A DNA stretch of 64,000 nt, from NCBI RefSeq assembly GCF_056712565.1, contig NZ_CM160072.1. One strand, written 5' to 3'. The position numbers were made by a program. This document shows positions 30,001 to 33,000 of the stretch, piece by piece. How positions within the stretch are numbered: the first letter of the stretch is position 1; each line of letters starts with the position of its first letter.

Positions 30001-33000
30001 AAGTTGAACTGATTGAGAGCATCCGACTTCATCAACTGTCATCAACTTTCGACGTTGTAACAGGCAAAGGCGTTCGTCAGGAAGTACTGGAGGCTGCTAA
30101 AGACAGCCCTGAGTTCGAAGAACTGATGGATGCCTATCGGCGAGAGGCAATGGCAATTATCGCCCGCTGGGATCTGGCGGATCAGCTTGATGGACAGAAG
30201 GACGCGGCATGAAACCGGGAATTTATTTCGGCATCAGCAACGAAGACTACCACGCAGGTGACGGCGTGAGTAAGTCGCAACTGGACATGGTTGCCAAGAA
30301 TCCGGCGCTTCTTAAATGGGTTCAGGCAGCACCAGAAGACGAAGAGAAAAAGTCTGCATTGGATATGGGAACCGCATTGCACTGCCTGCTTCTGGAACCT
30401 GGAGAATTCGACAAACGCTTCATCGTGTCACCGAAATTCGATCGTCGGACAAAACAAGGTAAAGCTGACGAAGAAGCATTTCTTCGTGATGTGGCGGATA
30501 TGGGTATTACGGTACTTGATGTCGAGCAGTGGCGAAAACTTGAGCTCATGCGTGATAGCGCAATGGCTCATCCGGCGGCACGCTGGATGTTGGAAGCACC
30601 TGGTTACTGCGAAGCATCAATGTACTGGAACGATGAAGAGACGGGTGAGTTGTGCCGAATTCGTCCAGACAAATGGCTGAACGAGCACAACGTGATCGTC
30701 GACGTGAAAAAGGTTGCAGATATGGACCGTTTTGCACGCCACATCGAGGAATTCCGCTACCACGTGCAGGACGCAATGTACCGCGAAGGCGCAACGAGGG
30801 TTACTGGTCAACCGCATGGTTTTTTCTTTCTTGCCGTGAGCGAAAGCATTGATTGTGGTCGGTATCCGGTACGCGTGTTCGAGTTGGATGCGCCGGATGT
30901 CGATGCCGGGCACGCTCTGTTCCGCCGGGATCTGAATACCTATCACGAATGCCGCATCAACGATGAGTGGGGCGGAGTGGAAATTATTAAACGCCCTGAC
31001 TGGGCACGTAAACAGGATATGTACGTATGAGCAATGATATCGCAATCACATCACAACCAGGCGCAACTGTAGGTACTGCTGCGGCAATCTTCAGCCCGGA
31101 GGGCATGAATCAACTGGTGCGTTTCGCGGAGTTGATGTCACAAAGCAAAGCGACTGTACCGAAACATCTTGAAGGCAAACCTGCCGATTGTCTGGCGGTG
31201 ACCATGCAGGCGGCACAGTGGGGAATGAACCCTTTCGCCGTGGCGCAGAAAACGCATGTGGTAAACGGAACGTTAGGCTACGAAGCACAGTTGGTAAACG
31301 CGGTCGTATCCTCTTCCAGCCTGCTGGCGACACGCCTGAATTATCGCTGGAGCGGTGACTGGTCGAATGTTAACGGCAAAACAGATAAATCACCGAATCT
31401 GACGGTAACTGTGTCAGCAGTTCTTAAAGGAGAAGCAGAACCCCGTGAGCTTACCATCAGTATGGCGCAAGCCGGAGTGCGTAACTCTCCATTGTGGGAA
31501 CAGGATCCGCGCCAGCAGCTTGCCTATCTTTGCACGAAACGATGGGCTCGCCTGCACGCTCCTGATGTGCTTCTCGGTGTTTACACCCCTGACGAATTAC
31601 AGGAAACGGCACCGCGCGTTGAGCGAGACATTACTCCGCAAACAACTACTGCTGCGGGAATGAACAGTCTGATCAACGCTAAACCAGTGAAAAAGCCTGA
31701 TGAGCAAACTCGTAAAGCGGATAGCCGTGATCCAGAAGAAATGCTGATGGCCTTTACCAGCGCAGCGATGAATTACAGCACTGTCTCCGAACTGGATAAG
31801 GCTTACAAATACATTGCACAAAAACTTTCAGATGATGACGAACTGCTGGCAAAAGCCACCGACGTTTACAGCGTTCGTCGGGAAGAATTAAACGAAACAT
31901 CTATGTAACCACCACCGCGGCGCCACACGCGCCGCACTGCAACCAAGAGAGGTATTTATGAAAGGTGCATTAGGTAAGAAGGAACTCCTGGCGGTGGTGC
32001 CACTGTCATGGAGCACTATCGACCGTATGGAGCGCGCAGGGGAATTTCCTAAACGCTGGTATATCACTGACAAACGCTGCGCATGGAACCGTGACGAAGT
32101 TGAGCGTTGGCTTGATGAACGTCAGGCAGCAAGCCCGGCAGAGTTCCAGGGTAAAAAACCTCCTGTTCAGCAACGTGTATATCGTCCCGTGAGCAACGCT
32201 GCATGAGTGCGCTGCTAAGGCACTGGAGCAAATGGTCAGGATGGTACTTATTCCTGGCCTCTGTTTCAGCATGGCTTTATCTGCTGGCATTAATTTTCAG
32301 AGAGGGTTGGATTAAGTGAGAAAGTTAAGCCGACTTGAAAAATATCACATGAATAAGGTTTCAATGCGCAGTCCGTCAAAGATTGTCGCCGTTACTCCTG
32401 CGGCGATAGAGATCGAAAAACGCGCGATTGAAAGAGAGAAAAAAGGGCAATTCCGCATTGCCGCTCACCTTTGGCTTCAGTGTATGGATGTTGCTTCTGG
32501 TGATGTTGAACGTGCAAGGATCGCGGTTCGCAGGGACCAATGTATCACAAAAGGTAACGGCCTTCGCCGTGGCGACTATAGCGGCATAGGATGTTGTGGG
32601 GTGGTTTATGACTAAGAAATACACACTAATCTATGCAGATCCACCCTGGGTATACCGGGACAAAGCCGCAGATGGTAATCGCGGTGCCGGTTTTAAATAT
32701 CCGGTTATGAGTGTGCTGGATATCTGCCGCCTTCCTGTGTGGGATTTGGCCGATGAAAACTGTCTGTTGGCCATGTGGTGGGTGCCAACACAACCACTCG
32801 AAGCACTAAAAGTTGTTGAAGCCTGGGGATTCCGTCTGATGACGATGAAGGGCTTCACGTGGATAAAATGTGGTAGTCGACAACCAGATAAACTGGTTAT
32901 GGGTATGGGACACATGACTCGCGCCAATAGTGAAGATTGCCTGTTTGCGGTAAAGGGAAAACTACCTACGCGCATTAATGCAGGGATCGTTCAGTCATTT

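Follow-up and report, generated by a model that had tools for sequence, protein, structure and literature searches.

A stand-alone RecE-type nuclease and a Redβ-related annealing protein encoded by overlapping genes of a Uetakevirus prophage in Escherichia coli

Introduction

A prophage in a 64,000-nucleotide stretch of E. coli DNA (RefSeq assembly GCF_056712565.1, contig NZ_CM160072.1; the whole stretch is called the window here, and positions are counted from its first nucleotide) carries two genes at 30209–31908 that a first-pass annotation took for a Red-like recombination pair, an exonuclease plus a Bet-like annealing protein, and for a case of mosaic lambdoid early functions inside a podovirus-type prophage. 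The question raised by this locus is which of the known exonuclease-annealase systems the pair belongs to, and whether it is a recent lambdoid import or an established part of the phage that carries it. In the reading that we consider very probably correct, the two genes form a two-component recombination (single-strand-annealing) module of a phiV10/epsilon15-like prophage.

Gene arrangement

Open reading frames were found exactly at the positions proposed. The first (30209..31030, + strand) starts with ATG and codes for a protein of 273 aa, a stand-alone RecE-type PD-(D/E)XK nuclease for which 5'-3' exonuclease activity is predicted by homology. The second (31027..31908, + strand), also with an ATG start, codes for a 293 aa single-strand annealing protein (SSAP) of the RecT/Redβ superfamily. 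Both genes are real and intact. Proteins 100% identical to the nuclease are encoded on 635 public contigs, and those identical to the SSAP on at least 1000, while chance ORFs are excluded by the match of the nuclease to PDB sequence 3H4R (E = 1.6e-77) and that of the SSAP to the Pfam RecT family (E = 1.2e-31). As read from the sequence, the two genes share a 4 nt stop/start overlap, ATGA (31027..31030, + strand), at the junction ...TAC GTA TGA GC..., where the ATG of the SSAP gene overlaps the TGA of the nuclease gene, and an AGGA lies 10 nt 5' of this ATG (31027). The overlap is kept in all related loci in which the genes are separate (82/82).

A second, identical ATGA overlap (30209–30212) connects the nuclease gene with the gene upstream, orf99 (29913..30212, + strand; 99 aa, with the start as annotated in phiV10), and orf99 is itself separated by a gap of 2 nt from the end of a 50 aa ORF, so that the gene string is tightly packed. 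Judging from the overlaps, translation of the nuclease and SSAP genes is probably coupled, and such coupling would favour matched amounts of both proteins. The product of orf99 matches phrog_856 (function unknown; E = 1.1e-54), found no match in Pfam and NCBIfam searches, and has enterobacterial homologues only (73–93% identical), i.e. the family is restricted to the Enterobacteriaceae. Its AlphaFold2 model is all-helical and of low confidence (pLDDT 68, pTM 0.32). The gene is present at the equivalent position in phiV10, TL-2011b, CRKP-1 and ET846, and it is possible that it is a third component of the recombination module; a Gam-like role for it is pure speculation.

Consensus scans marked a terminator-like hairpin 3' of the repressor gene (29625–29644, + strand) and a promoter-like site, TTGACA-17-AATCAT (29696–29724, + strand), 5' of the string formed by the small ORF, orf99 and the nuclease and SSAP genes. 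The phiV10 record has an annotated terminator at the place equivalent to the hairpin. Promoter- and terminator-like sites are not more numerous in these scans than expected from shuffled sequence, and an operon start at this point is therefore to be read as suggestive. The pair would be expressed from an early operon running rightward in window coordinates (+ strand).

The nuclease is of RecE type

Residues 21–254 of the nuclease match Pfam family PF12684 (DUF3799, PDDEXK-like; 78.1 bits, cutoff 26, E = 1.1e-21), the same model that is matched by the C-terminus of RecE of the Rac prophage, and the protein also matches phrog_412, 'exonuclease VIII' (E = 1.6e-125). The 3H4R entry, its single match among PDB sequences, is the nuclease domain of RecE (49% identity), and alignment to residues 599–866 of Rac RecE shows 48.9% identity over 268 aa. 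The RecE active-site signature consists of a PD-DXK motif together with His-652 (PMC11611040), and both are kept: H58 (codon at 30380–30382), D154 (30668–30670) and D165-V-K167 (D165, 30701–30703; K167, 30707–30709; all + strand) align with H652, D748 and D759-V-K761 of RecE. What the protein lacks in comparison with Rac RecE is an N-terminal region of about 600 aa. This region is included in the full-length exodeoxyribonuclease VIII model (NCBIfam NF007259), of which the nuclease covers positions 606–873 only, its score of 309 bits falling short of the cutoff, 1269 bits. Single-domain relatives of RecE are on record (PMC11611040). Membership of the RecE nuclease type would also imply processive 5'-3' exonuclease action on dsDNA and a toroidal tetramer.

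Lambda Exo belongs to a different nuclease family, YqaJ (PF09588), which it matches at E = 2.7e-30 in a calibration search; the nuclease of the window had no YqaJ match at E <= 0.01 in the Pfam search, and its blastp comparison with lambda Exo was not significant (E = 0.62). From the RecE-side matches and the absence of similarity to lambda Exo, we conclude that the nuclease is a stand-alone RecE-type domain and not a Red-type exonuclease.

The annealing protein lies nearer to Redβ than to RecT

Residues 35–197 of the SSAP match the Pfam RecT family (PF03837) with 110.3 bits (cutoff 24). As lambda Bet (115.6 bits) and Rac RecT (188.9 bits) both match this model, it places the SSAP at the level of the superfamily. 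The protein matches phrog_561 (E = 1.7e-145), and its family has 6939 representatives at E <= 1e-3 in a library clustered at 50%. At the level of the curated families, no match at E <= 0.01 was found to the lambda Bet equivalog (NCBIfam TIGR01913, bet_lambda; cutoff 76.95 bits), a model that lambda Bet matches with 169.5 bits and the sister-prophage allele of Bet type in CRKP-1 with 127.7 bits; likewise, there was no match to TIGR00616 (RecT), to which Rac RecT itself scores 413.6 bits. The predicted annealing activity rests for this reason on superfamily homology and predicted fold.

HMMER searches of PDB sequences proved too insensitive for this protein: neither Redβ nor RecT was recovered with the single sequence or with a profile of 92 family members (alignment A2), and the C-terminal region gave weak helical matches only (Gp77 and T4 UvsW.1, E = 0.3–1). 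We therefore turned to profile-profile alignment and to the comparison of folds, with A2 as input for both hhalign and AlphaFold2. The 92-sequence profile aligned with residues 35–201 of lambda Bet (E = 3.8e-5, probability 71%), as against E = 0.32 for Rac RecT. In blastp, the SSAP and lambda Bet are 32% identical over 71 aa, a stretch that includes the sequence ERDITP, identical in both proteins (SSAP 199–204, Bet 191–196). The AlphaFold2 model (pLDDT 89.5) has a predicted α/β N-terminal domain (about aa 17–191; pLDDT above 90 over aa 21–180) with a Redβ/RecT-like DNA-binding fold, for which Foldseek returned Redβ (7UJL) as the best PDB fold match, at a modest E value of 2.1e-3. On both sequence and model grounds, the SSAP is best described as a predicted annealase of the RecT/Redβ superfamily, nearer to Redβ than to Rac RecT and outside both curated families.

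Three segments can be distinguished. The annealing (DNA-binding) core, aa 1–198 (31027..31620, + strand), contains the Pfam match and is the segment exchanged among sister prophages (see below). A predicted flexible linker of low pLDDT, aa 199–235 (31621..31731, + strand), opens with ERDITP; in the model, aa 192–235 have a pLDDT of 48–77 and no secondary structure. The predicted C-terminal domain (CTD), aa 236–293 (31732..31905, + strand), consists of three helices (236–247, 253–266 and 271–292; pLDDT about 97). The layout of N-terminal domain, linker and small helical CTD is that of lambda Bet, but the CTD sequences are not detectably related: blastp gave no alignment between them, the hhalign alignment stops at Bet residue 201, and a general three-helix architecture, in the predicted model, is all that the SSAP CTD has in common with that of Redβ. 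The 'Bet-like C-terminus' recognised by eye therefore holds for ERDITP and its neighbours, which lie at the end of the core domain, and not for the C-terminal domain proper.

Comparison with the Rac and lambda systems

One of the closest known systems is RecE/RecT of the Rac prophage in E. coli K-12, also a two-component exonuclease/annealase module, with the SSAP gene likewise placed after the nuclease gene and overlapping it (recE-recT). The correspondence does not extend to the SSAP, which, by the TIGR00616 and hhalign results, falls outside the RecT subfamily. With lambda Red (Exo/Bet), the pair has in common its overall function, as predicted by homology, and an overlapping-gene arrangement.

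A true lambda Red module, made up of orthologues of lambda Exo (YqaJ) and lambda Bet, would explain the PF03837 domain common to the SSAP and Bet, the weak local match around ERDITP, and a fold and profile that resemble Bet more than RecT. [quoted passage not shown] The gene order is also the opposite: following transcription, the exonuclease gene comes first in the window, whereas bet precedes exo in lambda. No Gam homologue was detected. We consider a lambda Red module extremely unlikely. The profile searches place both proteins in recombination families and not in unrelated ones, so the exonuclease plus annealing protein assignment of the first-pass annotation stands (DUF3799 and 3H4R; PF03837), while its Red/Bet label fails for the nuclease and, for the SSAP, is right in direction but not at the level of the Bet equivalog.

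In the preferred reading, that of a two-component module, the nuclease and SSAP genes are adjacent, co-oriented and conserved as a pair. A module of this kind would also entail specific physical contact between both proteins and activity in recombineering. By homology, the RecE-type nuclease would resect the 5' strand at the ends of double-stranded DNA, and the SSAP would coat the 3' overhang left by resection and pair it with complementary single strands. A biochemical or genetic test of this pair was not found in the searchable literature. In practical terms, the two genes would be of direct use only as one more candidate E. coli-native recombineering pair.

The 'enterohemolysin 1' label

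A protein of phage TL-2011b that is 99% identical to the SSAP is annotated in GenBank as 'enterohemolysin 1'. Together with the first description of Ehly1 sequences on temperate phages of E. coli O26 (PMC6784236), this label would suit a virulence factor rather than a recombinase. According to PMC8767327 (citing Oscarsson et al.) and PMC6784236, the phage-borne Ehly determinants were later seen as RecT-like recombinases and not hemolysins, so that the hemolysin reading is already refuted in the literature, and both the Pfam RecT match and the predicted Redβ-like fold of the SSAP agree with a recombinase. That the 293 aa protein is enterohemolysin 1 in the sense of a virulence factor is the most improbable of the alternatives weighed here.

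As a recombinase, the SSAP probably belongs to the EHAP1-like family, by an assignment that follows the annotation trail and not a direct comparison with the EHAP1 sequence. This family is the branch of the RecT/Redβ superfamily attributed to Iyer et al. 2002 in PMC8093625. It comprises annealing proteins of E. coli and Salmonella phages and, as holds for the SSAP, falls within neither the RecT nor the Redβ family.

Prophage context and distribution

From about 1000 to 34910, the window is 97–98% identical (approximate values) to phiV10-like podoviruses of the genus Uetakevirus, the matching phages being phiV10, ZX5, PAS61, phiv142-3 and TL-2011b. The element that carries the pair is a Uetakevirus (phiV10/epsilon15-like podovirus) prophage located beside guaA in E. 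coli. To the left of the gene string are genes for a lambda P-like replication protein (26671–27471, - strand), a DnaT-like replication protein (27453–28268, - strand) and a CI-like, double-HTH repressor (29020–29604, + strand). To the right are those for an AlpA-type excisionase/regulator (31958–32206, + strand), a PerC-like protein (32316–32615, + strand), an MT-A70 methyltransferase (32596–33258, + strand) and a DUF1382 protein, as specified by lambda orf63 (33135–33449, + strand). They are followed by a P4-type integrase gene (33453–34703, - strand), which adjoins guaA (34896–36473, - strand).

The recombination pair is kept in phages of Escherichia, Salmonella, Klebsiella and Enterobacter, and of 5426 complete E. 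coli genomes, 475 contain it. ZX5, PAS61 and TL-2011b share the locus, with 97–98% DNA identity over the module, and phiV10 has a nuclease 97% identical to that of the window. In phiV10-like phages, the pair is annotated as recET, RecT or exodeoxyribonuclease VIII, and in E. coli the names given by PGAP are 'PD-(D/E)XK nuclease-like domain-containing protein' and 'RecT family recombinase'. It is, then, an ordinary pair, already known and annotated, and a standard, fixed part of the genus rather than a recent lambdoid import. The proposed mosaicism is borne out for the prophage, which is of podovirus type and has lambda P-like, DUF1382 and CI-like early genes, but does not extend to import of this genus-conserved pair; where it does affect the locus is inside the SSAP gene, as described below.

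Many E. coli prophages are defective, and the pair might be part of a decaying remnant that has no current function. In one related locus the SSAP is truncated to 38 aa, and in the window neither the left prophage end nor att repeats were found (no exact repeat of at least 12 nt is common to 1–2500 and 34650–34950). In the window itself, however, neither frame is shortened, hundreds of contigs encode identical proteins, and the catalytic residues of the nuclease are intact. In addition, the isolated, plaque-forming phages vB_EcoP_ZX5 and PAS61 carry the same genes at 98% identity, and the prophage's genes for structural and replication proteins are about 97% identical to those of these phages. 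A decaying remnant is very unlikely.

Core exchange within the SSAP gene

Sister prophages in strains CRKP-1 and ET846 have a 'bet' gene in the SSAP slot. The last 85 or so residues of the CRKP-1 Bet-type protein, i.e. the linker and CTD, are near-identical to those of the window SSAP. In a census of related loci (85 in number, IMG/VR supplying 80 and the others being phage and E. coli loci), three types of SSAP were distinguished: the window type (293 aa, 49 loci), the phiV10 type (313 aa, 21 loci) and the Bet type (305 aa, 11 loci). With ET846 as the exception (90%), the nuclease beside all three types is 97–100% identical to that of the window, and the final 80 aa of the SSAP are 95–100% identical across the types, again with the exception of ET846 (60%). 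None of the three types has lost the ATGA overlap.

The same pattern is evident at the DNA level. Identity between the window and phiV10, which has a different SSAP core (the 313 aa type; the two proteins are 74% identical over their length and diverge in the core only), is at least 92% through 31018, falls to 27–87% over 31019–31618, and is 97–100% thereafter. The Bet-type allele is 25–63% identical over 31020–31688 and at least 92% identical on either side. The bounds of these divergent blocks indicate that the exchanged cassette is the annealing core alone.

The CTD of Redβ binds lambda Exo and SSB, and exonuclease-annealase pairs are partner-specific, although the site of this specificity is unknown for annealases other than Redβ (PMC11611040). 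The fixed tail of the SSAP is plausibly a docking module for the equally fixed nuclease and/or host SSB, and the census pattern is consistent with this, though no proof of it. A stronger form of the idea, which we advance tentatively as falling somewhat short of an even chance, is that the linker and three-helix CTD serve as a portable adaptor for docking to the RecE-type nuclease, host SSB or both. With such an adaptor, phiV10-like phages could keep a single nuclease and swap the annealing core as a unit, the cores exchanged being two presumed EHAP1-like types and one genuine Bet type. The adaptor would also provide natural evidence that partner specificity of the RecE type resides in the CTD of the SSAP. 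The pattern would look no different if the tail were simply linked to the phage backbone, itself conserved, and crossovers fell in the conserved stretch that codes for ERDITP. Three natural cores behind the same nuclease and tail amount, as a minor but usable lead, to an allelic series with which exonuclease and SSB partner specificity could be tested and chimeric annealases designed. The searchable literature contained nothing relevant on chimeric or CTD-swap work.

The phiV10 'RecE-RecT fusion'

In the phiV10 record, a single ORF of 586 aa (gp37, 'putative recET') spans both frames. The fusion results from one extra A in an A-run located 17 nt before the nuclease stop codon, where phiV10 has AAAA and the window has AAA (31009–31011). 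The fused protein is found on three contigs only, those of phiV10 and of O157 typing phages 9 and 10, whereas in all 21 other phiV10-type loci the genes are split. Either this lineage alone has the fusion, or the additional A is a sequencing error in the homopolymer. Along with 'enterohemolysin 1' on the TL-2011b protein, the 'RecE-RecT fusion' of phiV10 is possibly a second database label to be corrected.

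Alternative annealing cores of the recombination module

In sister prophages of the phiV10/epsilon15-like group, a single slot is occupied by one of three alternative annealing cores of the single-strand annealing protein (SSAP). The slot corresponds to nt 31027-31690 of the window, and, in the comparison loci, to nt 4131-5069 of phiV10, 2319-3236 of E. coli CRKP-1 and 3319-4236 of ET846. In the census of related loci, the window-type SSAP (293 aa) was found in 49, the phiV10-type (313 aa) in 21, and a true Bet that passes the NCBIfam model TIGR01913 (305 aa) in 11. Across core types, the RecE-type nuclease encoded upstream and the C-terminal ~80 aa of the SSAP retain 95–100% identity, the exception being ET846 (90 and 60%, respectively, relative to the window).

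PhiV10 is annotated with a 586-aa RecE-RecT fusion, rather than split genes, and the difference is one extra A in an A-run (about nt 4112-4115 of the phiV10 locus, against 31009-31011 of the window), 17 nt upstream of the stop codon of the nuclease gene. Only three recorded contigs, phiV10 and the O157 typing phages 9 and 10, carry the fused protein, which may reflect either a homopolymer sequencing error or a fusion private to this lineage. In phage TL-2011b (JQ011317), the SSAP copy (nt 2630-3511 of the comparison locus, 99% identity) still carries the GenBank label 'enterohemolysin 1'. Since later work showed that the Ehly determinants are not hemolysins (PMC8767327, PMC6784236), this label is a historical misnomer.

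Immediately upstream lies a conserved gene (29913-30212, + strand) for an acidic, all-helical protein of 99 aa (phrog_856, function not assigned), and its ATGA overlap with the nuclease gene is present in every related locus examined. The family is confined to the Enterobacteriaceae, and AF2 models the protein with little confidence (pLDDT 68). It could serve the recombination module as an accessory factor; a Gam-like role would be pure speculation.

Downstream cargo and prophage ends

Downstream of the module, nt 32316-33449 (+ strand) of the window encode a PerC-like regulator, an MT-A70 adenine methyltransferase and a DUF1382 protein, the last a homologue of lambda orf63. The cargo of CRKP-1 differs (nt 3971-4736 of the comparison locus; a frameshifted PerC gene followed by one for a DGQHR-domain protein), and the region between module and integrase therefore looks like a variable slot. 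The right prophage end carries a P4-type tyrosine integrase gene (33453-34703, - strand), separated by about 190 nt from the GMP synthase gene guaA (34896-36473, - strand). No exact repeat of at least 12 nt was common to this end and nt 1-2500 of the window, so the att sites and left boundary were not located. Within the prophage is a tRNA-Arg gene (anticodon TCT; 20817-20893, + strand), and O157 typing phages 9 and 10 likewise have an annotated tRNA-Arg in the corresponding region.
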